Source: a bacterium (GTDB lineage Bacteria; UBA10199; 2-02-FULL-50-16; JAJFLM01). From it: a DNA stretch of 64,000 nt. How positions within the stretch are numbered: position 1 is the stretch's first letter; each line of letters opens with the position of its first letter. The translations under genes were made by a program, and so were the position numbers. The stretch lies in NCBI GenBank assembly GCA_965216315.1, contig CBDCFN010000016.1, positions 392,378-456,377 of the forward strand. The letters run 5' to 3'. The notes under the pieces are model-generated. The model saw only the letters and a list, made by a program, of their open reading frames with translations. It did not search any database and was not told where the DNA came from. Shown here piece after piece: positions 36,519 to 64,000 of this stretch.

Positions 36519-37141
36519 TTACGATAGTCGACTATGGAATGGGTAATTTGGCTTCAATAAAGAATATGCTGCGTAAACTTGGAGAGGATTCAATTATATC
36601 AAATGATCCAAAGGATATAGAGGCTGCGTCTTCGCTGATCTTACCAGGCGTTGGAGCTTTCGACTATGGAATGAAAAATATGAAACGACTGAATCTTATT
36701 CAAGTACTTGAATCAAAGGTTTTAGGTGAAAGAGTACCTATGCTAGGGATATGTCTTGGCATGCAGCTCTTGACTAAAAAAAGTGAAGAAGGATCTGAAG
36801 ACGGACTCGGCTGGGTCAATGCGGTTACCGTGAAGTTTGAACAAGATAGTATAGGTAAGAGTTTGAAAGTTCCTCATATGGGATGGAACGCAATAAAAAT
36901 GAAGAACTCACCCTTATTTGCTGATCTCGAAGATAAGAGCCGTTTCTATTTTGTTCATTCATATTATGTGAAGACTACGCATGAAGAAAATATTGCTGCA
37001 ACGACGACTTATGGTCAAGAATTCACTTCAGCTATCAACGACGATAATATATATGGTGTACAATTTCATCCAGAAAAGAGCCACCGTTATGGAATGCAGC
37101 TACTACGCAACTTTATAGGAATATCTACTAGTGCTTCTTAA
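36515..37141 (+). CDS. HisH-like glutamine amidotransferase (WbuY-like)
   Basis: The protein reads MITIVDYGMGNLASIKNMLRKLG...GICLGMQLL with a class I GATase Cys. The RBS is GGAG. The gene order hisH-hisF-wbpG matches the P. aeruginosa wbp cluster. Confidence 0.85.
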   Translation: MITIVDYGMGNLASIKNMLRKLGEDSIISNDPKDIEAASSLILPGVGAFDYGMKNMKRLNLIQVLESKVLGERVPMLGICLGMQLLTKKSEEGSEDGLGWVNAVTVKFEQDSIGKSLKVPHMGWNAIKMKNSPLFADLEDKSRFYFVHSYYVKTTHEENIAATTTYGQEFTSAINDDNIYGVQFHPEKSHRYGMQLLRNFIGISTSAS

Positions 37142-37916
37142 TAGATTGATTCCCGTCCTTTTGCTTAAGGATGGCGGGCTTGTAAAGACAAGGAAATTTG
37201 CAGATCCTGTCTATCTTGGCGATCCCGTCAACGCAGTGAAAATATTTAATGAGAAATGTGTTGATGAACTGATAATCCTAGATATTACGGCAAGTCTTTC
37301 GAAGTCAAAGCCTCAATTGCAGCTCATTGAAGAGGTAGCAGGAGAATGTTTTATGCCTATTGCTTACGGAGGAGGCATTAGAGATTTGGAAGATATTAGA
37401 GCTATTTTGAGCCTAGGTGTTGAAAAAGTAGTTCTAAATACCATTTTTTCAGAGTGCCCTGGATTAGTGAGAGAGGCAGCAGATATGTTTGGAAGTCAGA
37501 GTATCGTTGTATCCTTTGATGTGAAGAGGAATTTATTTGGTAAGACTGCTGTATACGCGGTGGGTGGAAGGCGCCGTGTGAGTATGTCGCCTGTGGATTA
37601 TGCACAATTTGCTGAAGACCAGGGAGCGGGAGAGCTATTTGTTAACTCCATCGATAGAGATGGATCAATGGCCGGATTCGATCTAGAGTTAATCAATGAA
37701 GTAACTCATTCAGTAAAGATTCCTACAATTGTATGTGGTGGTGCCGGGAGTTTAGCGGATTGTAAGCTAGCATTAAATTCGGGCGCGTCAGCTGTGGCCG
37801 CAGGAAGCTACTTTGTATTTCAGGGGAAGCACAGGGCTGTCCTGATATCATATCCATCCGAAGAAGAAATAAATAAAGTGATTAACGTCAGTGGAGAAAA
37901 AAATGCAAATAAATGA
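37131..37916 (+). CDS. HisF-like cyclase subunit homolog (WbuZ-like)
   Basis: The N-terminus LIPVLLLKDGGLVKTRKF and the block DELIILDITAS indicate a HisA/HisF TIM-barrel family protein. Confidence 0.85.
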   Translation: MLLNRLIPVLLLKDGGLVKTRKFADPVYLGDPVNAVKIFNEKCVDELIILDITASLSKSKPQLQLIEEVAGECFMPIAYGGGIRDLEDIRAILSLGVEKVVLNTIFSECPGLVREAADMFGSQSIVVSFDVKRNLFGKTAVYAVGGRRRVSMSPVDYAQFAEDQGAGELFVNSIDRDGSMAGFDLELINEVTHSVKIPTIVCGGAGSLADCKLALNSGASAVAAGSYFVFQGKHRAVLISYPSEEEINKVINVSGEKNANK

Positions 37917-39087
37917 GTATAGAATTTGTAATTGGTGTGTAATGGATACGACGGATCCTCAAATATCTTTTGATGAGAACGGGATTTGCAATCATTGTAA
38001 AGAATCTCAAGTAATGCTGGAGAAAATAAGTAGTTCTACATATGCTGCTAGGCAGTTAGAGCTAGGCCAAATTGTAGAGGAAATAAAAAAGGTAGGTGAA
38101 AAAAATGAATATGATTGCATCATCGGTTTGAGCGGTGGGGTTGATAGTTCATATCTAGCGTATTTGGCAAAAAAACTTGGACTAAGAGTGCTAGCAATTC
38201 ATGTTGATACCGGTTGGAACTCAGAGCTCGCGGTGAAAAATATTGAGCTCCTAGTGAGAAGGCTAGGCATTGATCTTTATACATTTGTTGTCGATTGGCC
38301 GGAAATGAGAGATCTCCAATTATCATTTCTGAAGGCTGCGGTTGCTAATCAGGATACACCTCAAGACCATGTGATACATGCCGCTCTTCATAGAGTCGCC
38401 GTAGAAAAAAAGATCAGTTATATTTTATCGGGTAGTAATTATTCTACTGAATGCATTCTTCCCAAGGCATGGGGGCACAGTGCAATGGATCTTCGGCAGA
38501 TAAAGGCGATACAAAAGAAGTATGGTACTGTAAAGTTAAAGAAATTTCCGCAATTAGGACTCTTTAAATATTATATTTATTACCCTTATATAAGACGGCT
38601 CAAGACAATTAAGCTACTGAACTATTATAACTACGTGAAATCAGAAGCGATGCAGGTTTTGGAGCAGGATCTTGGATGGAGATATTATGGTGGAAAGCAC
38701 TATGAGTCAGTGTTTACGAAATTTTTTCAGTCTTATTATCTTCCCGAAAAATTTGGTTTTGACAAACGAAAAGCCCACCTTGCAAGTTTAATTGCCTCAG
38801 GGCAAATGACAAGGGATGATGCATTGGTGGAGTTACAGCAACCTCTATATAATGAAAAAGAGTTGGTGGAGGATAAAGGGTATATTTGTAAGAAGCTTGG
38901 GCTTACAGTGGAAAAATTCGATGAATTATTGAGCGCCCCTAATAAGCACTATTTGCAGTATCCATCAGGACAAATGTTTTTTAAAATAAAAGGTAAGCTT
39001 GGGAGCGTGAAGAGGTATTTAAAAAGAATAATCTCTCAGAATCGCCCAATTACCTCTCCGAGAGAAGAAGTGAAATCCAAGAGCTAA
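37891..39087 (+). CDS. N-acetyl sugar amidotransferase (WbpG/WbuX/LfnA family; acetamidino-group synthesis)
   Basis: An N-terminal Cys4 ribbon reads CNWCVMDT...CNHC. The PP-loop reads IIGLSGGVDSSYLAYL. The start may be the second Met at 37903. Confidence 0.8.
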   Translation: MEKKMQINEYRICNWCVMDTTDPQISFDENGICNHCKESQVMLEKISSSTYAARQLELGQIVEEIKKVGEKNEYDCIIGLSGGVDSSYLAYLAKKLGLRVLAIHVDTGWNSELAVKNIELLVRRLGIDLYTFVVDWPEMRDLQLSFLKAAVANQDTPQDHVIHAALHRVAVEKKISYILSGSNYSTECILPKAWGHSAMDLRQIKAIQKKYGTVKLKKFPQLGLFKYYIYYPYIRRLKTIKLLNYYNYVKSEAMQVLEQDLGWRYYGGKHYESVFTKFFQSYYLPEKFGFDKRKAHLASLIASGQMTRDDALVELQQPLYNEKELVEDKGYICKKLGLTVEKFDELLSAPNKHYLQYPSGQMFFKIKGKLGSVKRYLKRIISQNRPITSPREEVKSKS

Positions 39088-39101
39088 GTCGTAAAGAAAT
39101 C

Positions 39102-40229
39102 ATGAAATTATGTGTGCATCTGACGCTTAAGTCTAAGCTTATGACATCTCGTATTCTTAGAGAGTGTAGGACAGGTGTGTCTCAGGGAGTATTCGATCAT
39201 GTTGAGGTCGTCGGCCTTAAAGAAGATGGGTTCCCAACGGTGGATACAGTGGAAGAAGGCATTACGGTTAGTAGAATTGATCTCAAGTCTAAACGTTTTT
39301 CTAAGATACTCATGATGCAACTCTTTAAGTATTGTGAATGGGTATATCGATTATTGAAACAATATAAGAATAGAAAAGTTTCCGTTATTCATTGTCATGG
39401 ATTAGGGACTTTGCCTGCCTCATTGGTTTTGAAGTGGCGATATGGATGTAAGCTTGTCTATGACGCGCATGAATTAGAGACCGAAAGTTCAGGCCTTAGT
39501 GGGATGCGAAAGGCATTAAGTAAGATAGTTGAAAGAATATGTATAAAACACGTAGATAGTGTTCTCGTAGTTAGTGATTCCATTGCAGCATGGTATGAAA
39601 AGAAGTACCCGATGCAAGAGCCATTTGTTGTTAGGAATGTTCCATACGCCCTTAAATCTATCGATAAAAATGGGGCCCTCAGAGATGAGTTTGGGCTAAG
39701 CTCTCTCGATTTAATTTTCTTATATCAAGGTGGGTTCGAAGCAGGACGGGGAATTGAAACCATGCTGGATGTATTTACTGATGGAAATGATAATAGGCAT
39801 CTAGTTTTCATGGGGTATGGCTCTTTATCTGGGAAGATAAAGTCTTATGCTGAAAAATACCCTAATATTCATTATCGAGATGCAGTTAGTTCTGATGATT
39901 TGCTTAAGTATACAGCAAGTGCAGATGTTGGGATGAGCTTAATTGAGAATTCATGTTTAAGCTATTTCTATTCATTACCTAATAAACTATTTGAATACAT
40001 GATGGCTGGCTTGCCAATCATTGGAAGTGATTTTCCTGAAATTAAGAAGGTAATCAAACGCAATGATTGCGGGTGGGTGGTTGATGCAGAGCCTCATTAT
40101 CTCAAGAGCATGATTAGGGATATTAAAAGAGCTGACATCCAAGATAAAGCTGAGGGCGCAAAAAAAGCGCGGCATGATTACACTTGGGAAAAAGAACAGA
40201 CTGTGCTTCTAGCGGCATATAACGCATAG
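39102..40229 (+). CDS. glycosyltransferase family 4
   Basis: The C-terminal GT4 motif NKLFEYMMAGLPIIGSDFPEIKKVI is present. It is a paralog of the next gene. Confidence 0.7.
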   Translation: MKLCVHLTLKSKLMTSRILRECRTGVSQGVFDHVEVVGLKEDGFPTVDTVEEGITVSRIDLKSKRFSKILMMQLFKYCEWVYRLLKQYKNRKVSVIHCHGLGTLPASLVLKWRYGCKLVYDAHELETESSGLSGMRKALSKIVERICIKHVDSVLVVSDSIAAWYEKKYPMQEPFVVRNVPYALKSIDKNGALRDEFGLSSLDLIFLYQGGFEAGRGIETMLDVFTDGNDNRHLVFMGYGSLSGKIKSYAEKYPNIHYRDAVSSDDLLKYTASADVGMSLIENSCLSYFYSLPNKLFEYMMAGLPIIGSDFPEIKKVIKRNDCGWVVDAEPHYLKSMIRDIKRADIQDKAEGAKKARHDYTWEKEQTVLLAAYNA

Positions 40230-40230
40230 A

Positions 40231-41358
40231 TTGGTAGCTATGACTCGAATCGTCCATATGACTTCTGTTCATCCGTATGATGATATTCGCATATTCCAAA
40301 AAATGTGTACTTCCTTGGCGAATGCCGGCTACGATGCTCATATTGTCGCTCCGATTGATAGAGAAGAAGATATACAATCCATGACGAGGGTTAAAGTCCA
40401 TCGCGTTCCAAAGCCAAAATCACGATGGGAGCGATTTCGGCGTACGCGGAAACAGGTTATGCAAGAGGCATTGAACTTGAAAGCGGACATATATCACTTT
40501 CATGATCCAGAATTGTTGCCTATAGGGCTAAAGATTCAAAAAATATTAAAAGTTCCTGTCATCTATGATGTTCATGAGGATGTAAGATTGCAAGTATTGA
40601 ACAAAGAATGGATCAAGCCGTGGGCACGAAAGATCGTTGGAAAATTATTCGGACGGTATGAGGATAATATTGCTATGCAGCTCGCTGGTATTGTCTCTGC
40701 AACACCTTCAATTTCTCAAAGGTTTTCGGGACATAGGAACTCTATCATTGTCCAGAATTTTGCTCTACTCAATGAATTTATACGAGACGAAACTGGAAAT
40801 AATAGCAAACGAAATATTTGTGTTTATGCAGGCACGATATCAAAGGAAAGGGGTGTCGTTCAGATAATTGAGGCAGTATCTCGAGCGGAGCCCGAAACTA
40901 AGTTATTGCTTGCGGGTAATATGGCATCCAATGAGCTCTATCATGAGCTAAAAAAAATGAATGAATGGAAACATGTGGATTACAAGGGGTTAGTGACAAG
41001 AAATGATATTGCAAAATATTATTCTCAAGCGTTGGTTGGTATGATTATGTTCCATCCTTTGCCGAACCATATGAATGCTCAGCCGAATAAATTGTTCGAG
41101 TATATGGGCGCCGGGTTGCCGGTTATCGTGTCTGACTTCCCGAGTTGGAGAGAAATTGTTTCACGGCTAAAGTGTGGAATATTAGTAGACCCATTAGATA
41201 CACGCTCCATTACACAGGCTGTAGAATATTTGCTTACTCATCCGGAAGAAGCCGAGGAAATGGGACAGAGAGGGAAGAGGGCAGTTGAGGAGCAATATAA
41301 TTGGTCACGTGAGGAGAAGAAATTATTTTCTTTTTACGAATCAATATCGATTAATTAG
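40231..41358 (+). CDS. glycosyltransferase family 4
   Basis: The N-terminus reads IVHMTSVHPYDDIRIF. The motif NKLFEYMGAGLPVIVSDFPSWREIV is present. Confidence 0.75.
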   Translation: MVAMTRIVHMTSVHPYDDIRIFQKMCTSLANAGYDAHIVAPIDREEDIQSMTRVKVHRVPKPKSRWERFRRTRKQVMQEALNLKADIYHFHDPELLPIGLKIQKILKVPVIYDVHEDVRLQVLNKEWIKPWARKIVGKLFGRYEDNIAMQLAGIVSATPSISQRFSGHRNSIIVQNFALLNEFIRDETGNNSKRNICVYAGTISKERGVVQIIEAVSRAEPETKLLLAGNMASNELYHELKKMNEWKHVDYKGLVTRNDIAKYYSQALVGMIMFHPLPNHMNAQPNKLFEYMGAGLPVIVSDFPSWREIVSRLKCGILVDPLDTRSITQAVEYLLTHPEEAEEMGQRGKRAVEEQYNWSREEKKLFSFYESISIN

Positions 41359-51792: not shown

Positions 51793-53085
51793 TTATTGAC
51801 AGTTTTGAGGGAGTGGCATTGTGCCCGCGAGAACTTCGCGGGCACAATTATTATTAATGATTTCTTCCGAAGTCAGTGAGCGGTTATAGACAGCAACATC
51901 ATCCAGTAACCCATGAAAATTATACTGCGTAGCTGTTGGCGCACCACTGAGATCAACAGAGCCACCTATCCGGTTGTCAATTGAACTCAAAGTTGTCCCA
52001 TTTAGATTGTCATAAACTGGAATTGAAGCTAATTCGGCACCACCTAAGAAGAACTTAGCACCAGAAGCTAAAGTGCTGCCATCGTAAGTTACGGCGACAC
52101 TTTGCATAGTGCCTGGAGCAGCGAAAGTCATCATTGAGTCAATTCTAAGGCGGTTGTCTGCTGAATTATCGCTGGTGTAAACAAAGTTTAGGTGATCGGA
52201 AGCATCGTAACCGAACCAGAAACCCCTTGAAAGAGATGGATTTGTATAGTCAGCATTGCTGAGTATCGTATGATCAGAGCCGGCTGAATCGCGTCTTGTC
52301 CATGCCTCAATGCTGAAAGCATCTGTCGAGTCAAAATTAAAGACATTGCCGATAGTGATGAAATCATTTACGCCGTCAAAGTTTACAGCGCCTCCTACAT
52401 GACCTTGTGTCCATGCGACAGCAAGATTAAAATTAGTCAAGGTTCCGCTATTCCCTACGCTGCTTGAGTCAATAGCAGTACCTCCTGCCCCATCATCCAT
52501 TCGCCACCAGCCTATCAATGAATTATCGGTCGAGAAGCCCGCGATATCACTGTAATTGGAAAAGGAAGCATCACTATAAACCGTTCTAACTTTCCAGTAG
52601 TACTGTGACGAAACAGCGAGCGAATCAATAACATCGTATTGAGTCGTAACCTGTATAGCGTTTGGGCAAAGATCAGGTCCGTCTATCGATGGCAGTCCTT
52701 GAGATGATTGGCATACTTGATATCCGCTAATGCTTTTTTCATTTACAGGTGGGAGCTCGCCATCCTGCCAAAATAAGAAGGCCCGTGTTGGAGTCAATTG
52801 GGCTCCATTTATTGGGCGAAGAATTGCGGGCGTTCCATCAAATGGGGTTCCTGCATCTACACTGCCAGCATCTGTCCCCGTATCCGTTGTGTCTCCATCT
52901 GTTGAGCCATCTGTTCCGCCATCAGTGCTGGAGCCAGCAATGAAGGGATCGCTAAAACACCCGACTGTCATCATTGATAAGGCGATTGGTACCAAGAGTA
53001 GCGAGTTGTGTGCTGTGTGAGCTGAAGCCATTACTGTGCTTGAGCCATGTAATGACGAATTTATCGAGGTGGTGCAGGCTAACAT
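51793..53085 (-). CDS. LamG/Fn3-like lipoprotein, paralog A (most divergent copy)
   Basis: Lipobox LSMMTVGC. A Thr/Gly/Asp-rich linker follows. The Fn3-like module ends in YYWKVRTVY. The LamG module carries FDGVNDF…FSIEAW…VAVTYDG…LDDVAVYNRSLT. The tail reads NNCAREVLAG…NCQ. An AGGAG RBS lies upstream. Confidence 0.6.
   Translation of the reverse strand: MLACTTSINSSLHGSSTVMASAHTAHNSLLLVPIALSMMTVGCFSDPFIAGSSTDGGTDGSTDGDTTDTGTDAGSVDAGTPFDGTPAILRPINGAQLTPTRAFLFWQDGELPPVNEKSISGYQVCQSSQGLPSIDGPDLCPNAIQVTTQYDVIDSLAVSSQYYWKVRTVYSDASFSNYSDIAGFSTDNSLIGWWRMDDGAGGTAIDSSSVGNSGTLTNFNLAVAWTQGHVGGAVNFDGVNDFITIGNVFNFDSTDAFSIEAWTRRDSAGSDHTILSNADYTNPSLSRGFWFGYDASDHLNFVYTSDNSADNRLRIDSMMTFAAPGTMQSVAVTYDGSTLASGAKFFLGGAELASIPVYDNLNGTTLSSIDNRIGGSVDLSGAPTATQYNFHGLLDDVAVYNRSLTSEEIINNNCAREVLAGTMPLPQNCQ
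51818..51848. terminator. perfect 11-bp-stem hairpin (tgtgcccgcga-gaac-tcgcgggcaca) between convergent transcription units
   Basis: The hairpin lies about 35 nt past the wbpM-like stop. On the other strand it sits inside the last roughly 18 codons (CAREVLAGT) of the first LamG gene. Hand-counted coordinates may be off by 1-2 nt. Confidence 0.4.
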
Positions 53086-53106
53086 CTGAAACTCCTCAAG
53101 GATTAT

Positions 53107-54570
53107 TTACTGACAAATTAATGGCAACGGGCTAGATCCGGCTAAGGCCTCACGAGAACAAGTTTCATTGATGACTTCAGGAAGAGTCAGTACTCGGGAA
53201 TATACAGCTACATCATCGAGGACACCATCAAAGTTGTAGAGGGAAGCGAGTGGCATTCCAGATGTATCAACAGAGCCACCAAGCCGCGTCGGAGCTGAGT
53301 TGAGGGTTGTGCCGGACAGATTATCATTGGTTAGAGTCGTAGCATCTTCAACGCCATCAACGTACATTTTAACGCCTGAGGCTGAAAGCGAGCCATCGTA
53401 GCTTAAGGCCACATGATGGGGTGTCCCAGCGCCAAATAGAGTTGTTGAATCAACCCTGATTTGATCCCCCGTACTATTATCACTATTAAGAGTGAAATTA
53501 AGATTGCCTGAGGCAATAAAGCCGAACCAGTAGCCACGCTGCAATGTAGAATCAGTATAATCGGTTCTACTGATAATCGTATCATCAGTACCAGTGGATT
53601 GGCGGTTAGTCCATGCCGAGATCGTATAGGGGGTTGTTGAATCAAAATTTAAAATATTCCCTAGTTCAACAAAGTCGTCAGTACCATCGAAGCTTAGGGC
53701 ACCACCAATAAGGCCAGGTGTCCAGGCGGTTGAAGTATCAAAATTAGTCAGGGTGCCGTTATTGCCCGCACTGCTGGAATCACTGGCTGTGCTGCCGGAA
53801 CCTTCATTGAAGCGCCACCAGCCGAGCAGAGAGTTATCGGTAGAAAAGGATCTAACTGGACTATAGTCGGTGCAATCGGCTTCTATGGCGTCGTAACAGG
53901 TTTGGACCTTCCAAAAATAACTTTGCGAGGGGGTTAAAGGATCGATGACACGGAAGCGATTGGTGTCGATGGTTTCATTGGGGCACTCGTCGGCATCATC
54001 GATATCGGCCAGCCCGACCGCGGTGTAGCAGGAACGATACCAGGTGGAGTTGCCTCCCGGAATGACGCCGTCTTGCCAGGACATAAAGGCGCGTGCGGGT
54101 GGCAATGTCTGTCCATCGGTGGGGAGCGATTGAGTTGGGATGTGGTCGGAGGGATATTCCATTCCACCATCCGTCGTGCCACTGTCGTCACCGCTATCAC
54201 TACCAGCATCGACTGGAGGTGTTCCACTATCGTCGGGACCTCCGTCACCCGTAGTCCCGCCATCCGATGTGCCGAGTCCACTCGGATCAAATGTACACGC
54301 TCCCAATAAGCAAACGACAGCTCCTAGCAGAGCTACAGGCACTAAACGTAAGGCAGATTTAAATAGCTTGGCTCCTTCATCAGGACGCTGAACTGAAGGG
54401 CTTTGTTTAGTAAGGATGGAGCTGTTTGGCGCAACCGAGCCCGTGAGTGAACTACTAGCAGAAACGCTTGGAGCACCTGCTTGTGCCATGTTTTGCGTAG
54501 GAATGCCCACACTGCTAAGCAGCAGCTGGGACGTCGCCATAGCTGTCGAATTTACACCAGCAAGATACAT
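53107..54570 (-). CDS. LamG/Fn3-like lipoprotein, paralog B
   Basis: Lipobox LLGAC. Fn3-like and LamG modules are present and the tail reads ETCSREALAGSSPLPLICQ. A long N-terminal region precedes the lipobox. Confidence 0.6.
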   Translation of the reverse strand: MYLAGVNSTAMATSQLLLSSVGIPTQNMAQAGAPSVSASSSLTGSVAPNSSILTKQSPSVQRPDEGAKLFKSALRLVPVALLGAVVCLLGACTFDPSGLGTSDGGTTGDGGPDDSGTPPVDAGSDSGDDSGTTDGGMEYPSDHIPTQSLPTDGQTLPPARAFMSWQDGVIPGGNSTWYRSCYTAVGLADIDDADECPNETIDTNRFRVIDPLTPSQSYFWKVQTCYDAIEADCTDYSPVRSFSTDNSLLGWWRFNEGSGSTASDSSSAGNNGTLTNFDTSTAWTPGLIGGALSFDGTDDFVELGNILNFDSTTPYTISAWTNRQSTGTDDTIISRTDYTDSTLQRGYWFGFIASGNLNFTLNSDNSTGDQIRVDSTTLFGAGTPHHVALSYDGSLSASGVKMYVDGVEDATTLTNDNLSGTTLNSAPTRLGGSVDTSGMPLASLYNFDGVLDDVAVYSRVLTLPEVINETCSREALAGSSPLPLICQ

Positions 54571-54671
54571 TTTCGCACCTAGCTCACTGTTCGGCTACGC
54601 TTATAAAAAGTTGCTCCAAATTAGAAAAAGTGAAAAGTTTTCTATATTCTCTATAATTTCAACATGTTATT

Positions 54672-56111
54672 TTAGTTGCATATTAATAGAAAAGGACCAG
54701 CTCCAGTGAGGGCCTCACGCGCACAAGTCTCATTGACGATTTCCTGAGCAGTCAGGGCACGATTGTAGACCGTGACATCATCTATGATTCCATCGAAATT
54801 ATAGAGAGAAGCTGAAGGCATCCCAGTTGTATCGATGGAGCCACCAATCCGCGTCGGGGCGGGATTGAGAGTCGTGCCCGCCAACGCATCGGATACAACC
54901 ATAACCGTCTCTTCAGTTCCATCGACAAAAAGTTTAGCTCCACTAGCCATCGTGGATCCATCATAGGTGACGGCCACATGATGGGGAGTCCCCGGGGAAT
55001 TAAAGAGAGTCGTCGAATCAATGCGGAGTCGGTTGCCCGTACTGCTGTCACTCACCAAGAAGAGATCGAGGGTGTCAGTAGAACTAAAGCCAAACCAATA
55101 ACCTCGTTGCAAGACGGGATCGGTATAGTCGGCCCGTGCAAAGATAGTATGGTCGGAGCCAACAGCCTGGCGGTTGGTCCAGGCGGAGATAGTAAAGGGG
55201 CTCGAAGCATCGAAATTCAAGATGTCACCGAGTTCAACGAAATCGTCAGTGCCATCGAAGGTCAAGGCTCCCCCGATAAAGCCCGGGACCCAGGCAGATG
55301 CGAGATCGAAATTAGTCAGGACTCCATTGTTGCCTGCACTGCTGGAATCAGTAGCGGAACTGCCAGCGCCGTTGTCCATACGCCACCAGCCGAGTAAGGA
55401 ATTGTCGGTGGAGAAGGAGCGCACGGGACTGTAGTCCGTACAGTCGGTTCCGCCCGCATCGTAACAGGTCTGGACCTTCCAAAAATAACTTTGCGATGGG
55501 GTTAAAGGATCGATGACACGGAAGCGATTGGTGTCGATGGTTTCATTGGGGCACTCGTCGGCATCATCGATATCGGCCAGCCCGACCGCGGTGTAGCAGG
55601 AACGATACCAGGTGGAGTTGCCTCCCGGAATGACGCCGTCTTGCCAGGACATAAAGGCGCGTGCGGGTGGCAATGTCTGTCCATCGGTGGGGAGCGATTG
55701 AGTTGGGATGTGGTCGGAGGGATAACCGGCTCCACTATCATCATTGGCATCGGAGCTGGCGTCGACGATTGGGCCACCATCAGGGCCCCCGTCGCCAGGA
55801 CCAATAGTGCCATCACGTGCACCGACATATGAGTCATTAAATGAACATCCAGCCAAAAGACATAAGATCGTGCTAAGAATAAGACTCTCTAATAGCGATG
55901 AAGAGGCGCTTTCTTTAATTGTTGTAGGATCATGAATAGCTGGCTTTTTAATATGCCTCTGTGGCCGAATATTTGCTGTGGATCCAATTAATTTGGATTC
56001 TTGTATTGAGAGCGATGTAAAGGTTTTCTGCGTTTGCAGAGGAGTACTGCAAAGAACAGTTTGTGATAACAACGATGATGATATACCGCTAATAATGTTC
56101 ATAAGGCGCAA
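54672..56111 (-). CDS. LamG/Fn3-like lipoprotein, paralog C
   Basis: Lipobox LLAGC. Its Fn3 segment is identical to those of B and F. The tail reads ETCAREALTGAGPFLLICN. Confidence 0.6.
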   Translation of the reverse strand: MRLMNIISGISSSLLSQTVLCSTPLQTQKTFTSLSIQESKLIGSTANIRPQRHIKKPAIHDPTTIKESASSSLLESLILSTILCLLAGCSFNDSYVGARDGTIGPGDGGPDGGPIVDASSDANDDSGAGYPSDHIPTQSLPTDGQTLPPARAFMSWQDGVIPGGNSTWYRSCYTAVGLADIDDADECPNETIDTNRFRVIDPLTPSQSYFWKVQTCYDAGGTDCTDYSPVRSFSTDNSLLGWWRMDNGAGSSATDSSSAGNNGVLTNFDLASAWVPGFIGGALTFDGTDDFVELGDILNFDASSPFTISAWTNRQAVGSDHTIFARADYTDPVLQRGYWFGFSSTDTLDLFLVSDSSTGNRLRIDSTTLFNSPGTPHHVAVTYDGSTMASGAKLFVDGTEETVMVVSDALAGTTLNPAPTRIGGSIDTTGMPSASLYNFDGIIDDVTVYNRALTAQEIVNETCAREALTGAGPFLLICN

Positions 56112-56287
56112 CCGCTAACATTAAAGATAGTCAGGCTATCCAGCAGTATCGCACCTGAATCTAGCATCGTATTTCATTACAAAAAGTTGTGCAAAACTTC
56201 ATGAGCTGCTGCGATAGGGCTATAACTTACTGTTATTATTTCTTTTATAGGAGTACTTTTTTATGGCTGGTAGGCGGTTAGGGCAGG

Positions 56288-57511
56288 CTAATTGCAAATA
56301 GGACTCAATGCTGACATATCATTGGTTTCTTGTCGATTGAGAGCCTCGCGGGCGCAGGTTTCATTGACGATTTCCTGAGCAGTCAGGGAACGATTATAAA
56401 CCGTGACATCATCAATAATTCCCTCAAAATTATAGAGAGATGCCAGCGGCATCCCAGCTATATCGATAGAACCTCCAATTCGTGCCGGAGCCGGATTGAG
56501 AGTTGTGCCCGCCAACGCATCGGATACAAACGTTACGGCGTCTTCAACTCCATCGACAAAAAGTTTAGCGCCAGCGGCCATCGTGGACCCATTATAAGTG
56601 ACGGCCACATGATGGGCAGTATTCGGGGCATTAAAGAGAGTCGTCGAATCGATGCGGAGCCGATCACCGGTGCTGCTGTCACTAACTAAGAAGAAGTTGA
56701 GGGTGTCAGTAGAGCTAAAGCCAAACCAATAACCCCGTTGAAGGGTTGGGTCGGTATAATCAGCCCGTGCAAAGATAGTATGATCGGCGCCCACGGACTG
56801 GCGGTTTGCCCAAGCCGAGATGGTAAAAGAGTTTGTGGCGTCAAAATTCAAAATATCACCGAGTTCAACGAAGTCATTAGTGCCATCGAAGCTGAGGGCG
56901 CCTCCGACAAGGCCCGGGACCCAGGCGGTTGAGGTATCAAAATTAGTCAGGATTCCATTATTTCCGGCACTGCTGGAATCTGTGGCTGTGCTGCCGGTGC
57001 CATCGTCCATGCGCCACCAGCCAAGAAGTGAATCGTCAGTAGAATAAAAACGAATGGCACTATATTCGGAGACTGTATCGTCATTGTATCTTGTGCGAAC
57101 CTTCCAGTGATAAGTTGTATTTGGAGTAAGTAGGGGAGTGACATCATAAGCTGTTGCGACCAATTTGCTTCCAGGGCAAGCAGCGCCTTGAATGGAGGTA
57201 AGTCCTTCCGTCGTTTGGCATATTTCGAAGCTGCTAATGATCTTGTCCGCCGGAACATTAACTGCTTGCCAAGATTGGAAGGAACGCGTCGGAGGAAGCA
57301 GCGAACCGTCGGGTGGGAATGTGAGCGATGGAATACCACTCCCAACGGCGATGCCACCGACTCCTCCTGAGCCGGTCATTCCACCGAGCTGCCCGTCAGA
57401 ATACTCATCTAGGCCGAGAATCTCACTACAGCTGGTTGCGCTTAGCCCTAAGCCGAATACGAGGAGTGCTCGACCAGCTGTTGAATTAATACTTGTACCA
57501 ATTAGAGTCAT
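56288..57511 (-). CDS. LamG/Fn3-like lipoprotein, paralog D
   Basis: A short lipoprotein signal ends in LSATSC. The Fn3 module is of the second type (…EICQTTEG…CPGS…YHWKVRTRY). The tail NRQETNDMSALSPICN is shared with paralog E. Confidence 0.6.
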   Translation of the reverse strand: MTLIGTSINSTAGRALLVFGLGLSATSCSEILGLDEYSDGQLGGMTGSGGVGGIAVGSGIPSLTFPPDGSLLPPTRSFQSWQAVNVPADKIISSFEICQTTEGLTSIQGAACPGSKLVATAYDVTPLLTPNTTYHWKVRTRYNDDTVSEYSAIRFYSTDDSLLGWWRMDDGTGSTATDSSSAGNNGILTNFDTSTAWVPGLVGGALSFDGTNDFVELGDILNFDATNSFTISAWANRQSVGADHTIFARADYTDPTLQRGYWFGFSSTDTLNFFLVSDSSTGDRLRIDSTTLFNAPNTAHHVAVTYNGSTMAAGAKLFVDGVEDAVTFVSDALAGTTLNPAPARIGGSIDIAGMPLASLYNFEGIIDDVTVYNRSLTAQEIVNETCAREALNRQETNDMSALSPICN

Positions 57512-57513
57512 AC

Positions 57514-58788
57514 CTAATTACAAATTGAAGGCAAGGCAGACATGTCATTAGTTTCCTGTCGATTAACGGCCTCGCGCGCACAGGTCTCATTGACGATCTC
57601 TTGAGCAGTCAGGGCACGGTTGTAAACCGTGACATCATCTATGATTCCATCGAAATTATAGAGGGAGGCTGAAGGCATGCCAGTGACATCAACCGATCCA
57701 CCAATCCGCGCCGGAGCGGGATTGAGAGTCGTGCCCGCCAACGCATCGGATACAACCGTAACCGTCTCTTCAGTCCCATCCACGAAAAGTTTGGCTCCAC
57801 TAGCCATCGTGGAGCCGTCATAGGTCACGGCCACATGATGGGGAGTATTCGGGGTATTAAAGAGAGTCGTCGAATCGATGCGGAGTCGGTTGCCCGTACT
57901 GCTGTCACTAACCAAGAAGAGGTCGAGGGTGTCAGTAGAACTAAAGCCAAACCAATAACCTCGTTGCAGGACGGGATCCGTATAATCAGCCCGTGCAAAG
58001 ATGGTGTGGTCGGAGCCCGCAGCCTGGCGGTTGGTCCACGCGGAAATAGTAAAAGGGCTCGAAGCATCAAAGTTCAAGATGTCACCGAGCTCAACGAAGT
58101 CGTCAGTGCCATCGAAGGTCAAGGCCCCGCTGACCAAGCCCGGGACCCAGGCGGTTGAGGTATCAAAATTAGTCAGGGTGCCGTTATTGCCCGCACTGCT
58201 GGAATCACTGGCTGTGCTGCCGGAACCTTCATTGAAGCGCCACCAGCCGAGTAAGGAATTGTCGGTGGAGAAGGAGTGCACGGGGCTGTAGTCCGTACAG
58301 TCGGTTCCGCCCGCATCGTAACAGGTCTGGACCTTCCAAAAATAACTTTGCGATGGGGTTAAAGGATCGATAATACGAAAAAGGTTGGTATCGATCAATT
58401 CATTCGGACAGTTCGCGGCGTTTGAGATAGCGGCTATATTAGCCGCATGGCAGGAACGATACCAGGTGGAATTGCCCTCAGGAACGACACCATCTTGCCA
58501 GGATATAAACGCACGCGCAGGCGGCAATGATTGTTTGTCAGCCGGTTGTGATTGAAGTGGGATGTGATCGGCAGGATAACTGTTGTCGATGGTTCCGCCA
58601 CTGCCGCCCATTCCGGCTGTTCCGCCCGTCGTTATCATGCCACCGGTTCCACCGGTAGAGCTCCCTGGAGGATCGCCAATTTTGTCCCGGTCGACTTCAG
58701 TTAGGAATGAGCAGCTTGCGACGCCCATACTGAATCCCAGCGCGAGTGCAAGTCGAGAGCTGGTTGCAGATGCCATGAATCCGTTCAT
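57514..58788 (-). CDS. LamG/Fn3-like lipoprotein, paralog E
   Basis: The lipoprotein signal ends in GVASC. Roughly 0.8 kb is about 99% identical to paralog F. The tail reads NRQETNDMSALPSICN. It starts 2 nt after the stop of paralog D. Confidence 0.6.
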   Translation of the reverse strand: MNGFMASATSSRLALALGFSMGVASCSFLTEVDRDKIGDPPGSSTGGTGGMITTGGTAGMGGSGGTIDNSYPADHIPLQSQPADKQSLPPARAFISWQDGVVPEGNSTWYRSCHAANIAAISNAANCPNELIDTNLFRIIDPLTPSQSYFWKVQTCYDAGGTDCTDYSPVHSFSTDNSLLGWWRFNEGSGSTASDSSSAGNNGTLTNFDTSTAWVPGLVSGALTFDGTDDFVELGDILNFDASSPFTISAWTNRQAAGSDHTIFARADYTDPVLQRGYWFGFSSTDTLDLFLVSDSSTGNRLRIDSTTLFNTPNTPHHVAVTYDGSTMASGAKLFVDGTEETVTVVSDALAGTTLNPAPARIGGSVDVTGMPSASLYNFDGIIDDVTVYNRALTAQEIVNETCAREAVNRQETNDMSALPSICN

Positions 58789-58894
58789 ATAATATATCTC
58801 CTTCTCCAGTGTGTGGTGTCGACTAGAGGCAAGAATTGTTGTGGAACCGAAATAAAATTCGTTTACTGGAGTAAACAGCTAAAAGGTGCTTATG

Positions 58895-60754
58895 CTATTG
58901 ACAGGGACTTGGGAGCGGATCCGAACTCGCAAGAGCCTCGCGCGCACAGGTCTCATTGACGATCTCTTGAGCAGTCAGGGCACGGTTGTAAACCGTGACA
59001 TCATCTATGATTCCATCGAAATTATAGAGGGAGGCTGAAGGCATGCCAGTGACATCAACCGATCCACCAATCCGCGCTGGGGCGGGATTGAGAGTCGTGC
59101 CCGCCAACGCATCGGATACAACCGTAACCGTCTCTTCAGTCCCATCCACAAAAAGTTTAGCTCCACTAGCCATCGTGGAGCCGTCATAGGTCACGGCCAC
59201 ATGATGGGGAGTATTCGGGGTATTAAAGAGAGTCGTCGAATCGATGCGGAGTCGGTTGCCCGTACTGCTGTCACTAACCAAGAAGAGGTCGAGGGTGTCA
59301 GTAGAACTAAAGCCAAACCAATAACCTCGTTGCAGGACGGGATCCGTATAATCAGCCCGTGCAAAGATGGTGTGGTCGGAGCCCGCAGCCTGGCGGTTGG
59401 TCCACGCGGAAATAGTAAAAGGGCTCGAAGCATCAAAGTTCAAGATGTCACCGAGCTCAACGAAGTCGTCAGTGCCATCGAAGGTCAAGGCCCCGCTGAC
59501 CAAGCCCGGGACCCAGGCGGTTGAGGTATCAAAATTAGTCAGGGTGCCGTTATTGCCCGCACTGCTGGAATCACTGGCTGTGCTGCCGGAACCTTCATTG
59601 AAGCGCCACCAGCCGAGTAAGGAATTGTCGGTGGAGAAGGAGTGCACGGGGCTGTAGTCCGTACAGTCGGTTCCGCCCGCATCGTAACAGGTCTGGACCT
59701 TCCAAAAATAACTTTGCGATGGGGTTAAAGGATCGATGACACGGAAGCGATTGGTGTCGATGGTTTCATTGGGGCACTCGTCGGCATCATCGATATCGGC
59801 CAGCCCGACCGCGGTGTAACAGGAACGATACCAGGTGGAGTTGCCTCCTGGAATGACGCCGTCCTGCCAGGACGTAAAGGCGCGCGCGGGTGGCAATGTC
59901 TGTCCATCGGTGGGGAGCGATTGAGTTGGGATGTGGTCGGACGGATAAACAGTTCCAGCATCAGTCATGTCGGCCACATCGTCCGGTCCGTCATCTGTAT
60001 CAGTATCAAGGACAGCGTCGGGAGAGGTATCAATTGTTCCATCAGAACTGTCTGTATCAGCCAGGCTGTCACTCGTATTTATGTCAGAAATATCCGCAGA
60101 TGTATCGGTGATTACATCTGCATCGTTTTCATTTATGTCAGGTATGTCAAATTCTACATCTACATCTTGAGGGACGTCTATTAAAGCTATGTCTGTGTCG
60201 GCATCTTCGACGCGAGAATCTTGGATATCTCTTTCCACATCATTAATCGTGTCATCCTCTGCATCTGGAATGAAAAGGTCAGGTAGGGGGGCGTCACCGC
60301 CAATCCCGCTATCGAGGAGATCAGGGTCCAAAGATTCTCCGTCAATTTGGTCAAACCGGCTCAAGTCACCATCAAATTGGCAGCCTGCACTGAAGATTAG
60401 GAGTCCTGCGGTAATGCCAAGTAAACGCTTTGCGAGACTATAGGACCTCTTCGGAGTTTCGACAGTTGATGCAGGGAATCCCGTTCTTTCAGTGAACTGA
60501 AAAGTCTGATTACTCTCTGTCGTAATTGGAATAAAACGAGTCTCATTTGCCTGTTGATGAGTGGGTAGTGTTGCTAAGGTACCAGTTTGTAATGAATTGC
60601 TGAGTGCAAGTGACGTTAATGTAGATGATGTGTTAGATAAGGATATGAAACTCATTTTTTTCTCCGCAATACGTATATAGTAATACCGTTCATATTGCGC
60701 GAAAGAATCGTATTGTTGGATGGAAAGTTGCGGAAAAACAAGGTTAGGTGTCAA
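58895..60754 (-). CDS. LamG/Fn3-like lipoprotein, paralog F (with roughly 110 aa Asp-rich acidic linker)
   Basis: Lipobox IFSAGC. A D-rich low-complexity linker (DVDVEFDIPDINENDADVITDTSADISD…) follows. The Fn3 and LamG modules are present. The tail reads LASSDPLPSPCQ. Confidence 0.6.
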   Translation of the reverse strand: MTPNLVFPQLSIQQYDSFAQYERYYYIRIAEKKMSFISLSNTSSTLTSLALSNSLQTGTLATLPTHQQANETRFIPITTESNQTFQFTERTGFPASTVETPKRSYSLAKRLLGITAGLLIFSAGCQFDGDLSRFDQIDGESLDPDLLDSGIGGDAPLPDLFIPDAEDDTINDVERDIQDSRVEDADTDIALIDVPQDVDVEFDIPDINENDADVITDTSADISDINTSDSLADTDSSDGTIDTSPDAVLDTDTDDGPDDVADMTDAGTVYPSDHIPTQSLPTDGQTLPPARAFTSWQDGVIPGGNSTWYRSCYTAVGLADIDDADECPNETIDTNRFRVIDPLTPSQSYFWKVQTCYDAGGTDCTDYSPVHSFSTDNSLLGWWRFNEGSGSTASDSSSAGNNGTLTNFDTSTAWVPGLVSGALTFDGTDDFVELGDILNFDASSPFTISAWTNRQAAGSDHTIFARADYTDPVLQRGYWFGFSSTDTLDLFLVSDSSTGNRLRIDSTTLFNTPNTPHHVAVTYDGSTMASGAKLFVDGTEETVTVVSDALAGTTLNPAPARIGGSVDVTGMPSASLYNFDGIIDDVTVYNRALTAQEIVNETCAREALASSDPLPSPCQ

Positions 60755-60820
60755 ATAAACTTAACACTTGAATACAAAAGATAGCGATATCTTTAAAGAG
60801 AGTGCTACATCACTCAAATA

Positions 60821-62266
60821 TCAATTGCATATTGACGGTAAGGGATCAGAGCCAGCGAGAGCTTCGCGCGCGCAAGTCTCATTGACGATTTCCCGAGCAG
60901 TGAGGGCTCGATTATAGATCACGAGATCATCAAGAACTCCATCAAAGCTATAGAGAGAAGCTAAGGGCATTCCACTTGGATCAATAGAGCCACCAATCCG
61001 TGCCGAAGCGGAATTGAGGGTCGTGCCTGTTAATGCATCGGTGACTACAGTGGAGGTTTCTTCAGTTCCGTCGACAAAGAGCCTTGCCCCTGCAGCCATA
61101 GTTGAGCCGTCATAGGTGACGGCAACATGATGAGGAGCGCTGGGGGTATCGAAGACAGTTGTTGAATCAATACGAATCCGGTTTCCGGTACTGCTATCGC
61201 TGACGAAGAAGAGATCAAGCGTATCAGAAGAGCTGAATCCAAACCAATAACCACGTTGTAGGGCTGGATCCGTATAATCCGCCCTGGCAAAAATAGTATG
61301 ATCAGACCCAACGGATTGACGGTTAGTCCAGGCGGAGATTGTATAGGGGGTCGTTGAATCGAAATTTAAAGTATCACCGAGCTCTACAAAGTCATTCGTA
61401 CCATCAAAGTTTAAGGCCCCACCAATAAAACCCGGAACCCAGGCGGAAGCGATATCAAAATTAGTCAGGGTGCCGTTATTGTCAGCACCGCTGGAATCAC
61501 TAGCCGTCATTCCGGAACCTTCATTGAAGGTATAGCGTGCAAGCAAGGAGCTATCTGTGTTGACCATGCGCAGGGCACTGCCCATGGAGCGCGAACCATC
61601 ATCGTATAAAGCTCTTACCTTGACATGATAGGTAGAGCTTGGATTTGTAATATTAATTGCACCGAATGGAGACGTTACAGTGTTGCTCTGTGGGCATTCA
61701 GTAGAATCATCGATAGATGTAGTCCCAGTTGTTGTATAGCAAATCTCGTATCCTGCAATAGATCTGCCCGGAGGGAGTGTAGCCGCTGGATCCCAGCGGA
61801 TAAAAATACGGTTGTTGGGCAAAGAGATATCTGTTGCAGGAATCGTAATCGTCGAATTGTCGTCAATGACTGGACCACTGTCACCGGCATCATTGGTGCT
61901 TCCATCTATATCGGCATCCGGGCTTGCATCGGGAATGGGTCCTCCATCGGGGCCCCCGTCACCTCCACCATCGATAGTGACACCACGGCCTCTTCCATCT
62001 AATAAGCAACCACTGCCAAATAAACTGAGCACGCCTCCGATAATGAAAGTCGGTAACACTAAAGCGGCATGGCGAAGTCTGCGCTGGTTTGTTTCGTTGA
62101 GTAAGCGCGTCAGTGTCGAATTTTGCGTCACGGATTCGAGTAGAGGTTGAGCCAAATGGTTCGTGTTCGTTGTACTCGGAAGGCTTGGGGGCAGCTGCTG
62201 TAAAGAACTCGCCAGGACGGGCCGAGCCGACAGTAGGAATGGTGTCATCGGATTGATTAGACGCAT
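60821..62266 (-). CDS. LamG/Fn3-like lipoprotein, paralog G
   Basis: The ATG is preceded by GGAGAAACC. A roughly 60 aa N-terminal region precedes lipobox LFGSGC. The Fn3 module is divergent (…EICYTTTG…YHVKVRALY). The tail reads SDPLPSICN. Confidence 0.6.
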   Translation of the reverse strand: MRLINPMTPFLLSARPVLASSLQQLPPSLPSTTNTNHLAQPLLESVTQNSTLTRLLNETNQRRLRHAALVLPTFIIGGVLSLFGSGCLLDGRGRGVTIDGGGDGGPDGGPIPDASPDADIDGSTNDAGDSGPVIDDNSTITIPATDISLPNNRIFIRWDPAATLPPGRSIAGYEICYTTTGTTSIDDSTECPQSNTVTSPFGAINITNPSSTYHVKVRALYDDGSRSMGSALRMVNTDSSLLARYTFNEGSGMTASDSSGADNNGTLTNFDIASAWVPGFIGGALNFDGTNDFVELGDTLNFDSTTPYTISAWTNRQSVGSDHTIFARADYTDPALQRGYWFGFSSSDTLDLFFVSDSSTGNRIRIDSTTVFDTPSAPHHVAVTYDGSTMAAGARLFVDGTEETSTVVTDALTGTTLNSASARIGGSIDPSGMPLASLYSFDGVLDDLVIYNRALTAREIVNETCAREALAGSDPLPSICN

Positions 62267-62289
62267 GGTTTCTCCAAATTACTCAAGCA

Positions 62290-63747
62290 TCAGTTGCATA
62301 TAGATGGTAGAGAGCCGGATCCAGCAAGAGCCTCACGCGCACAAGTCTCATTAGAGATTTCCTGAACAGTCAGGGCCCGATTATAAACAGCGATATCATC
62401 AATGATCCCCTCAAAATTATAGAGAGATGCCAGTGGCATCCCCGCTGTATCGATAGAACCTCCAATCCGTGCCGGGGCGGGATTGAGAGTCGTGCCCGCC
62501 AACGCATCGGATACAACCGTAACCGTCTCTTCAGTTCCATCCACAAAAAGTTTAGCTCCACTAGCCATCGTGGAGCCGTCATAGGTCACGGCCACATGAT
62601 GGGGAGTACTAGGTGTGTTAAAGACAGTTGTAGAATCGATGCGGAGTCGGTTACCCGTACTGCTGTCACTCACCAAAAAGAGGTTGAGGGTGTCAGTAGA
62701 GCTAAAGCCAAACCAATAACCTCGTTGCAGGACGGGATCCGTATAATCGGCCCGTGCAAAGATAGTATGGTCAGCGCCGACCGACTGGCGGTTGGTCCAA
62801 GCCGAGATGGTAAAGGGGGTGGCTGAGTCAAAATTTAAGATATCACCGAGTTCCACAAAGTCATTGGCACCGTCAAAACTTAGGCCTCCGCCGACAAGGC
62901 CTGGATTCCAGGCGGTTGAGGTATCAAAATTAGTCAGGGTGCCGTTATTGCCCGCACTGCTGGAATCACTGGCTGTGCTGCCGGAACCTTCATTGAAGCG
63001 CCACCAACCGAGCAGAGAATTATCAGTCGAGAAGGAACGCACGGGGCTGTAGTCCGTACAGTCGGTTCCGCCCGCATCGTAACAGGTCTGGACCTTCCAG
63101 AAATGACTCTGAGCCGGGCTTAAGGGGTCAATCACGCGGAAACGATTGGTGTCGATGGTCTCATTGGGGCACTCGGTAGTGTCATCGACATCGGTCATGG
63201 CCGTGGCATGACAGGAGCGATACCAGGTAGAGGCGCCACCTGGGATGACGCCGTCTTGCCATGACATGAAGGCGCGCGTGGGCGCGAGGAGTTGTCCGTC
63301 AGCCGGCAACGATTGCGTCGGGATGTGATCGGATGGATAACCGGTACCACCGTCTTCGGCATCGCCGGCGTCACCCGGACCGCCATCCATATCGGCATCC
63401 GGACTTGCATCGAGGATGGGGCCTCCATCGGGGCCGCCATCACCACCATCAGGTCGCGGCGGAGCGGTGCCGCTTCGGTCTAAGAAGCAGCCACTACCGA
63501 ACAGGGCGAGCAGGCCCCCAATCACAAAAGCGGGTATGGCTAAGGCAGAGCGGCGGAGCCGCTGCCGGCTTGGCTCACTGAATAAACGCGTCAGCCCAGA
63601 ATCCGGAGAAACGGGCTCTAGAGATATTTGGGTTGGCGCCGAAATGTCAGCTTGAGTCTGGAGGCCAGTTGGCGCTGGTGATACAGAACTCGCTAAGATG
63701 GGCTGAGCCGATAGCAGAAAAGACGTTGTCTGACTTATTAGGTGCAT
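62290..63747 (-). CDS. LamG/Fn3-like lipoprotein, paralog H
   Basis: The ATG is preceded by GGAGAACCC. The N-terminal pre-region is homologous to that of G. Lipobox LFGSGC. The tail reads SGSLPSICN. Confidence 0.6.
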   Translation of the reverse strand: MHLISQTTSFLLSAQPILASSVSPAPTGLQTQADISAPTQISLEPVSPDSGLTRLFSEPSRQRLRRSALAIPAFVIGGLLALFGSGCFLDRSGTAPPRPDGGDGGPDGGPILDASPDADMDGGPGDAGDAEDGGTGYPSDHIPTQSLPADGQLLAPTRAFMSWQDGVIPGGASTWYRSCHATAMTDVDDTTECPNETIDTNRFRVIDPLSPAQSHFWKVQTCYDAGGTDCTDYSPVRSFSTDNSLLGWWRFNEGSGSTASDSSSAGNNGTLTNFDTSTAWNPGLVGGGLSFDGANDFVELGDILNFDSATPFTISAWTNRQSVGADHTIFARADYTDPVLQRGYWFGFSSTDTLNLFLVSDSSTGNRLRIDSTTVFNTPSTPHHVAVTYDGSTMASGAKLFVDGTEETVTVVSDALAGTTLNPAPARIGGSIDTAGMPLASLYNFEGIIDDIAVYNRALTVQEISNETCAREALAGSGSLPSICN

Positions 63748-63845
63748 GGGTTCTCCAATTCACTCAATTAGTCGCACCTAATTAAGTCTACCCATTCATC
63801 GCTCATCCCGGTAAAAAGTTGTGCCTTTTTGGATTGGCGCCTAAC

Positions 63846-64000
63846 TCATTGAAAATATTTGATATTTGAGCTTTTAAAAGTGAAGTAAAAGACGAGGGCA
63901 AAGCCCCAACCGGCGAGGACGTCGATGAAGTAATGGTGATTCAAGTAGACGGCCGCAAATGCGGCCAAGGCGGCATAGAAATGGAAACACCAACGAAAAT
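63846..64000 (-). CDS. PAP2-family phosphatase, C-terminal fragment (gene continues beyond window end)
   Basis: The minus-strand frame reads …AALAAFAAVYLNHHYFIDVLAGWGFALVFYFTFKSSNIKYFQ*. The block HHYFIDVLAG matches PAP2 motif 3 (HxxxDVxxG). No start codon falls inside the window, so it is absent from the ORF track. Confidence 0.5.
   Translation of the reverse strand, partial: FRWCFHFYAALAAFAAVYLNHHYFIDVLAGWGFALVFYFTFKSSNIKYFQ

Follow-up and report, generated by a model that had tools for sequence, protein, structure and literature searches.

The present work concerns a tandem array of eight paralogous genes, here designated A to H, which was delimited from open reading frames (ORFs) and alignment at positions 51793-63747 of a 64,000-nucleotide (nt) stretch of bacterial DNA (contig CBDCFN010000016.1 of assembly GCA_965216315.1; this whole stretch is called the window), and in particular an almost identical segment shared by the two neighbouring members E and F. 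All eight genes are read from the minus strand: A (51793-53085), B (53107-54570), C (54672-56111), D (56288-57511), E (57514-58788, 424 amino acids (aa)), F (58895-60754, 619 aa when counted from a TTG start), G (60821-62266) and H (62290-63747). The E product is 100% identical to database entry P0001, and the public call of F has 586 aa (P0114), presumably counted from the in-frame Met of MSFISLS. Each product has a putative lipobox Cys and a low-complexity linker, which are followed by an Fn3-like domain, a Laminin_G_3 (LamG) domain and a short tail that contains Cys. The overall nucleotide identity among the paralogs is 53-91%; the repeat finder aligned B to H in register, and A, with 53-57% nucleotide identity to the rest, remained under its threshold.

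When E and F were compared without gaps at an offset of 1366 nt, the segments E 57569-58371 and F 58935-59737 (both on the minus strand) were found to be identical at 799 of 803 positions, and the longest exact run (E 57794-58371) extends over 578 nt. Every 50-nt window between approximately 57575 and 58374 has 96-100% E/F identity, with 16-45% in the ungapped comparison on both sides. An earlier note on this DNA, made from the letters alone, had placed the shared segment at 57570-58370 and 58936-59734 with the same offset, which is right to within 1-3 nt, and the protein identity up to NETCAREA that it described is borne out by the alignment (IDPLTPSQ... through ...NETCAREA). It had also presented three pairs of matching antisense ORFs as confirmation; the pairs are indeed identical, but necessarily so, since all three lie inside the 578-nt exact run, and they do not constitute independent evidence. 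In E the tract corresponds to the codons for residues ~140-407, which comprise the final third of the Fn3-like domain, all of LamG and the C-terminal helix as far as NETCAREA. With the domain limits taken from the AlphaFold2 model, the tract starts (around residue 140 of E) within the Fn3-like domain and not at a domain border, and it ends just past the conserved C-terminal helix.

Both boundaries of the tract are abrupt, as the earlier note had claimed, and the E/F comparison shows no gradual decay of identity. Inside the boundaries E and F are 100% identical over 100 nt at the 5' end (in gene sense) and over 53 nt at the 3' end. Directly beyond the 5' boundary the identity is 9/15, 20/30 and 38/60 (60-67% in the first 15-30 nt), and beyond the 3' boundary it is 6/15 (40%) and 6/30 (20%). 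The flanks had been described as completely different, which holds for the C-terminal tails (14/52 identical, essentially unalignable) but not for the upstream flank, where E and F have homologous Fn3-like coding sequence with ~64-69% identity and saturated synonymous sites.

The same step is visible at the codon level. The eight genes were aligned by codons, and synonymous (dS) and non-synonymous (dN) divergence was estimated by the Nei-Gojobori method. Inside the tract the E-F pair has a dS of 0.026 and a dN of 0, and in the 222 aligned nt directly upstream, which belong to the 5' part of the Fn3-like domain, dS is 1.67 and dN is 0.22, so that dS jumps more than 60-fold across the boundary. 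The tract codons of all other paralog pairs have dS values of 0.35-2.3. The dN/dS ratio (omega) is ~0.1-0.15 in all paralog pairs and, taken together with the collapse of dS in the tract, this means that selection at the protein level cannot explain the synonymous identity of E and F. In a GENECONV-like test the E/F match extended without interruption over 353 family-polymorphic sites, a length that was not attained in any of 2000 site-order permutations; the same resolution limit of 0/2000 was reached by nine of the 28 pairs (EF, BC, CF, BF, CE, EH, FH, BE and BH). The E/F tract is far beyond what chance would produce.

The four residual differences (E/F: C/T at E 57712, A/G at 57715, G/A at 57784 and G/A at 57793) are all synonymous changes at third codon positions, and the first two are the pair that the earlier note had given as an example (cggagcg versus tggggcg). 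They are confined to 82 nt (E 57712-57793, F 59078-59159; P ~0.004 under uniformity), and the other 721 nt of the tract are without differences. By origin two of them are E-only, one is F-only and one is a polymorphism common to other paralogs. Within this cluster H is nearer to F (135 nt with 1 mismatch) than to E (132 nt with 3 mismatches). The cluster is compatible with a patchy repair of heteroduplex DNA or with a later micro-event.

The E/F tract is one of many in a mosaic array and not a singular exchange. Maximal-scoring segments were mapped on the codon alignment, and one of the further tracts, in the Fn3 5' part, joins B 53903-54156 to C 55471-55724 (254 nt, 1 mismatch); it is very recent, and it exists despite a dS of ~2.2 between the LamG parts of B and C. 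An older tract of 338 nt with 7 mismatches connects F 59604-59941 with C 55381-55718 and spans the E/F 5' boundary, and a tract of 248 nt with 6 mismatches between B (53903-54150) and F joins it. A second C=F tract comprises 256 nt with 13 mismatches. At the Fn3-LamG junction there is a patch of 92-100 nt which is identical in H (62908-63006), E (58147-58245) and F (59513-59611) and nearly identical in B (53721-53826). Additionally, H 62474-62608 and F 59079-59213 share 135 nt with 1 mismatch, and an overlapping patch connects H with C 54855-54956 (102 nt, 2 mismatches). The divergence of the tracts is graded from 0.4% to 5% (1/254, 4/803, 7/338 and 13/256 mismatches), and therefore they point to repeated events over time, that is, to a continuing process. 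Every gene of the array is thus a mosaic of segments held in common with different neighbours, and the E/F event is the largest one and, together with B=C, among the most recent.

The segments on either side of the E/F tract have different affinities. The tract of E is nearest to F, but the tail of E has the 15-nt insertion that is specific to D and agrees with D at 39/52 positions versus 14/52 for F, and the Fn3 5' part of F matches B and C at 204/210 positions versus 144/210 for E. In E a short putative lipoprotein signal peptide and a Gly-rich linker precede a diverged Fn3 5' part that is peculiar to this gene, and the tract and the D-like tail follow; F has an N-terminal extension with a putative lipobox after it, then the acidic insertion of ~130 aa, the B/C-like Fn3 5' part, the tract and a tail of its own. 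Two breakpoints within coding sequence, with flanks grouping with different paralogs, indicate the replacement of a patch, i.e. gene conversion, which is formally equivalent to a double crossover. A single unequal crossover was rejected: it predicts one breakpoint and identity continuing through the tail and the downstream gene, and the tract is bounded at both ends.

Our preferred explanation, to which we assign a probability of roughly 0.85, is that a recent ectopic gene conversion between paralogs copied the 803-nt segment over a neighbour, with F as the most likely template and E as the recipient. The earlier note had already argued for a recent non-reciprocal transfer rather than a duplication of the whole gene, and this is supported by the abrupt ends, the dS contrast (0.026 vs 1.67) and the affinities of the flanks, while the non-reciprocal character of the transfer is our inference. 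In mechanistic terms, a break or gap in one paralog may have been repaired from a misaligned neighbouring copy through strand invasion of the RecA type, in which case F would have served as the template and the homologous 803-nt segment of E would have been overwritten. The two genes now encode identical Fn3-end and LamG modules, whereas their signal peptides, linkers, Fn3 front halves and tails differ. Conversion of this kind has acted repeatedly across the eight genes.

The direction from F to E is somewhat favoured over the reverse, because F is continuous with C and B across the E/F 5' boundary (where it stays identical to them and E departs from all three), because outside E/F the tract is nearest to C (dS 0.35), which is also the nearest to the F flank, and because the GC content at third codon positions (GC3) of the tract (0.59-0.65) is closer to that of the F flank (0.69) than to that of the E flank (0.45).

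Several points weigh against this interpretation, or at least against its details. The GC3 argument is based on ~70 codons only, and the C-F similarity used for the polarity is a conversion tract in its own right. The tract rests on the assembled consensus of one genome. The clustering of the four mismatches would mean either that the event was patchy or that a second micro-event took place afterwards. Furthermore, an orthologous array was found neither among 5.8 billion proteins nor in genome contigs or metagenome contigs, and since no such array or close relative is on record, polarity, non-reciprocity and timing had to be deduced indirectly. The nearest non-self homologs (P0007 and P0008) are 45-47% identical and stand on 2-kb contigs, and the scans of genome and metagenome contigs returned only LamG relatives of 30-33%. 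These two distant homologs (45-47%) come from short Logan contigs, and behind each of them stands a further paralog that shares the N-terminal architecture; a tandem arrangement therefore looks typical of the family, as far as these contigs suggest.

The ends of the tracts across the array gather in the most conserved DNA, namely the Fn3-LamG junction and the NETCAREA codons, as homology-dependent resolution predicts, and the family-wide homology stops where the E/F tract has its 3' boundary. The earlier note had proposed to look for Chi-like or short repeat motifs at the boundaries, and no such motif marks them; boundary-specific 7-mers sought across the tract boundaries were likewise absent. 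The Escherichia coli Chi octamer GCTGGTGG is present in the coding strand of six of the eight paralogs, where it encodes a conserved GWW motif. It sits 131 nt inside the E/F tract, and the other 52 kb contain it a single time, roughly as chance predicts. A Chi-stimulated hotspot was rejected, as the octamer is explained by the GWW codons and is not enriched elsewhere; it is moreover the E. coli sequence, and the Chi of this host may differ. A hairpin at the 3' boundary (CAREA codons) was also discarded, since a strong stem-loop is formed there in paralog A only and not in E or F.

Among the alternatives two ascribe more purpose to the array than passive gene conversion does. In the first, the array would serve combinatorial module shuffling, where frequent conversion among full-length, co-resident paralogs would keep re-assorting signal/linker, Fn3 and LamG modules in functional connection with the capsule locus described below; we consider this doubtful, but if true it would represent surface variation without silent cassettes in an uncultured, deltaproteobacteria-like lineage with a small genome (2.4 Mb). 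In the second, which appears unlikely, a dedicated variation system would reshuffle the lectin-like lipoprotein modules by selected or programmed segmental conversion, for antigenic variation or ligand specificity, and E/F would be a snapshot of it. The mosaic array with at least six distinct tracts, the lectin-type fold of the predicted lipoproteins, the large surface-polysaccharide locus alongside and the tandem position of the distant homologs as well are in line with such a system. Nevertheless, silent or truncated cassettes are absent, and so is a single expression site, all eight copies being full-length with starts and putative lipoboxes; phase-variation repeats and invertible elements were searched for and none was found, and the scanned ORFs of the 64 kb include no dedicated recombinase or reverse transcriptase. 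An omega of ~0.1-0.15 indicates purifying and not diversifying selection, the E/F event homogenised the two genes rather than diversifying them, and passive concerted evolution accounts for everything seen. Two specific forms of programmed variation were considered as well. A diversity-generating retroelement is contradicted by the lack of a reverse-transcriptase domain in the 34 scanned ORFs (4 genes of the array plus 30 ORFs of the 64-kb flank) and by the differences on the coding strand (G/A, T/C, C/T and C/T), which have no adenine bias. Cassette-type antigenic variation is not supported, as all eight ORFs are full-length and possess their own start codons and putative lipoboxes.

A recent tandem duplication of the whole gene, with the flanks replaced later (C/B sequence into F, D sequence into E) and the 803 nt left as an untouched remnant, is quite improbable. 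The 1366-nt spacing, which is about one gene unit, agrees with it, as do the 97% similarity of the F Fn3 5' part to B/C and the 75% similarity of the E tail to D. Yet at least 3-4 later replacements would be needed where a single patch suffices. The Fn3 5' part and leader of E are at most 70% similar to any paralog, so they were not imported recently from within the array, and the E tail, being just 75% like D, is not a recent import either. Moreover, this scenario still requires gene conversion and differs only in which segments were overwritten.

It is even less probable that the identity is an artefact of assembly or polishing, in which reads of one paralog shaped the consensus of the other in a metagenome-derived contig. 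The source indeed appears uncultured: its LigA has relatives no closer than 70% identity, and the named ones, entered as 'MAG: Deltaproteobacteria bacterium', reach 54-57%. Moreover, paralog arrays are known trouble spots of assemblers. However, the source contig has 2,397,981 bp, which we take to imply reads that span repeats spaced by 1.4 kb, and both copies are in frame with junctions that are clean at the codon level and with four differences persisting in the tract. A single consensus error would not yield several tracts of graded divergence (0.4-5%) in other pairs, and polishing does not make an exact copy with single-nucleotide boundaries from sequences that are 10-35% diverged. Finally, unusually strong purifying selection on the LamG module, or a constraint on its codons, although this module is the best conserved part of the family at the protein level, is refuted as the cause of the identity by the E-F dS of 0.026 against 0.35-2.3 for the same codons in every other pair and by a tract boundary that lies inside the Fn3-like domain and not at a domain limit.

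Conversion between neighbouring paralogs for bacterial surface proteins is already established, and E/F is a new and very clean example of it. In Mycobacterium tuberculosis the '12/40 polymorphism' of PE_PGRS17/18 arose by conversion between adjacent paralogs (PMC1762029), and conversion tracts in ppe18/ppe57 and other PE/PPE genes were described within an outbreak (PMC12046097). As in these systems, E and F are neighbouring surface-protein paralogs in which a block of linked differences was moved at once with both boundaries in coding sequence. They differ in that direction and recency were obtained from strain comparison in M. tuberculosis, whereas E and F are known from one genome, and in that the LamG/Fn3 lipoproteins form an unrelated family whose eight tandem copies are all mosaic. 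For prokaryotic multigene families (rRNA operons, tuf and others) concerted evolution is documented (PMC8022953, PMC6053082), and the array resembles it in that paralogs are homogenised by homology-dependent non-reciprocal recombination; in the rRNA and tuf families whole genes are homogenised over long periods, whereas the array has short patchy tracts (90-800 nt) between paralogs of 53-91% nucleotide identity.

The array also invites comparison with systems that generate antigenic variants. In cassette antigenic variation (Neisseria pilE/pilS, Borrelia vlsE, Treponema tprK) one expression site is supplied from silent, promoterless partial cassettes, often with the help of cis elements. The array is comparable in that segmental conversion yields mosaic surface-protein genes from a clustered family, but all of its copies are complete genes, and the search for phase-variation or invertible repeats found none.

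The consequence for the family is that, next to a capsule locus, it evolves reticulately, and phylogenetic trees, orthology calls and selection tests on the Fn3-LamG proteins must be carried out per segment. Short-read mapping over the array, or the polishing of metagenome-assembled genomes in this region, is unreliable. The E/F tract would raise a new mechanistic question only if the shuffling proved to be both ongoing and adaptive in the population.

The Fn3-LamG lipoprotein family is uncharacterised and comes from an uncultured lineage. The Pfam scan of the array covered four paralogs and detected Laminin_G_3 (PF13385) in all of them with 86.8 bits in E, 87.1 in F, 71.3 in A and 85.8 in G (cut-off 27.6), together with a weak fn3 or Ig signal upstream of LamG. 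The AlphaFold2 model of E has a mean pLDDT of 63, with a confident beta-sandwich at residues ~70-185 and a jelly-roll followed by the C-terminal helix at residues ~240-412. Foldseek searches with this model against the PDB retrieved the lectin module of Streptococcus sanguinis PilC, sialic-acid-binding CBM40 modules, pentraxins and botulinum Hc-N (E values 6e-10 to 1e-5), all at 11-18% sequence identity. The tract hence encodes a LamG jelly-roll (PF13385, 87 bits; Foldseek 1e-6 to 6e-10) like that of CBM40, the PilC lectin module and TafC, but the proteins differ from these at 11-18% identity, with 49.7 bits against 410 for TafC and without a sialidase or pilin part. Membership in the TafC family of fimbrial proteins (NCBIfam NF052521) was rejected, since the scores are 47-50 bits against a cut-off of 410 and the LamG part alone aligns. 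By eye, with the lipobox pattern [LVI][ASTVI][GAS]C as the guide, lipobox-like ends can be read in the paralogs as LLAGC (C), LLGAC (B), GVASC (E), FSAGC (F), SATSC (D), MTVGC (A) and FGSGC (G and H); a hydrophobic stretch precedes each xxxC, and a low-complexity linker rich in D/G/T/S follows. On the basis of these features the array products are putative surface-exposed, glycan-binding lipoproteins.

The N-terminal regions of the paralogs have further peculiarities. The linkers vary greatly in length and composition, and in F, unlike the other paralogs, the lipobox Cys is separated from the Fn3-like domain by an acidic low-complexity insertion of ~130 aa that is rich in D/T/I (window 59950-60400). 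B, C, F, G and H carry an extension of 40-100 aa upstream of the lipoprotein signal peptide, starting downward from 54570 in B, at 56111 in C, at 60754/60655 in F, at 62266 in G and at 63747 in H; in these five paralogs the lipobox-like end and its hydrophobic stretch are preceded by 60-100 aa, and D and E are without the extension. The extension has a conserved start, M-x-L-I ... L-L-S-A-x-P-x-L-A-S-S, and the same extension is seen in the tandem neighbours of the two distant homologs (L005:1816-2217 and L006:1498-1914). Non-synonymous and synonymous differences per site (pN/pS) of 0.33/0.66 between G and H suggest that it is translated. Pfam gave no match for the extension, and a suspected likeness to the flagellin N-terminus was dismissed, as no Flagellin_N match appeared even at E<=10.

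Between the start codon of D (57509-57511) and the stop codon of E (57514-57516) there are 2 nt, a spacing that suggests co-transcription or translational coupling of the two genes; the gaps A/B and G/H are ~21-23 nt, and the other gaps of the array are 66-176 nt. On the plus strand, antisense ORFs of 107-139 aa stand opposite the LamG part of C (54978-55397), D (56330-56689), E (57835-58158) and F (59201-59524), and they are treated as non-coding by-products, since they owe their conservation to the sense strand alone and substitutions track the codon phase of the minus strand with an omega of ~0.1.

The array is convergent with a surface-polysaccharide/capsule locus of ~48 kb (window ~3000-51785), which lies on the plus strand except for two minus-strand genes (Wzz and SLBB) and ends at 51785. 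It contains genes for Wzi, Wzz, an SLBB/Wza-like protein, a NusG-like regulator, UDP-sugar dehydrogenases and epimerases, DegT aminotransferases, glycosyltransferases, flippase-like proteins, Bac_transf and Polysacc_synt_2. A helix-turn-helix (HTH) protein and the NusG-like regulator form a pair at 9156-10150, and there are two flippase-like genes and several DegT aminotransferases. Eight ORFs of 258-561 aa in this locus had no Pfam match in a scan of the locus outside 36515-41358; they include 17876-19561, 24088-25713, 25713-26696, 27389-28984, 30455-31231, 31212-32678 and 33899-35239. The GC content is 37-40% at 24-40 kb versus 47-54% in the LamG array. At the other side, positions 63748-64000 contain no paralog beyond H; upstream of H, on the minus strand, a gene whose product is hydrophobic and probably a membrane protein (YLNHHYFIDVLAGWGFALVFYFTF) reaches into them with its 3' end, which marks the end of the array.

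At the convergent side a perfect hairpin with a 14-bp stem, ATTGTGCCCGCGAGAACTTCGCGGGCACAAT, is situated at 51818-51848 within the 3' end of the A coding sequence, where it encodes NCAREVLAGTM, 33 nt past the stop codon of the convergent Polysacc_synt_2 gene. The other seven paralogs are without a comparable stem at the homologous CAREA codons, and from its position the hairpin of A looks like a bidirectional terminator embedded in coding sequence.

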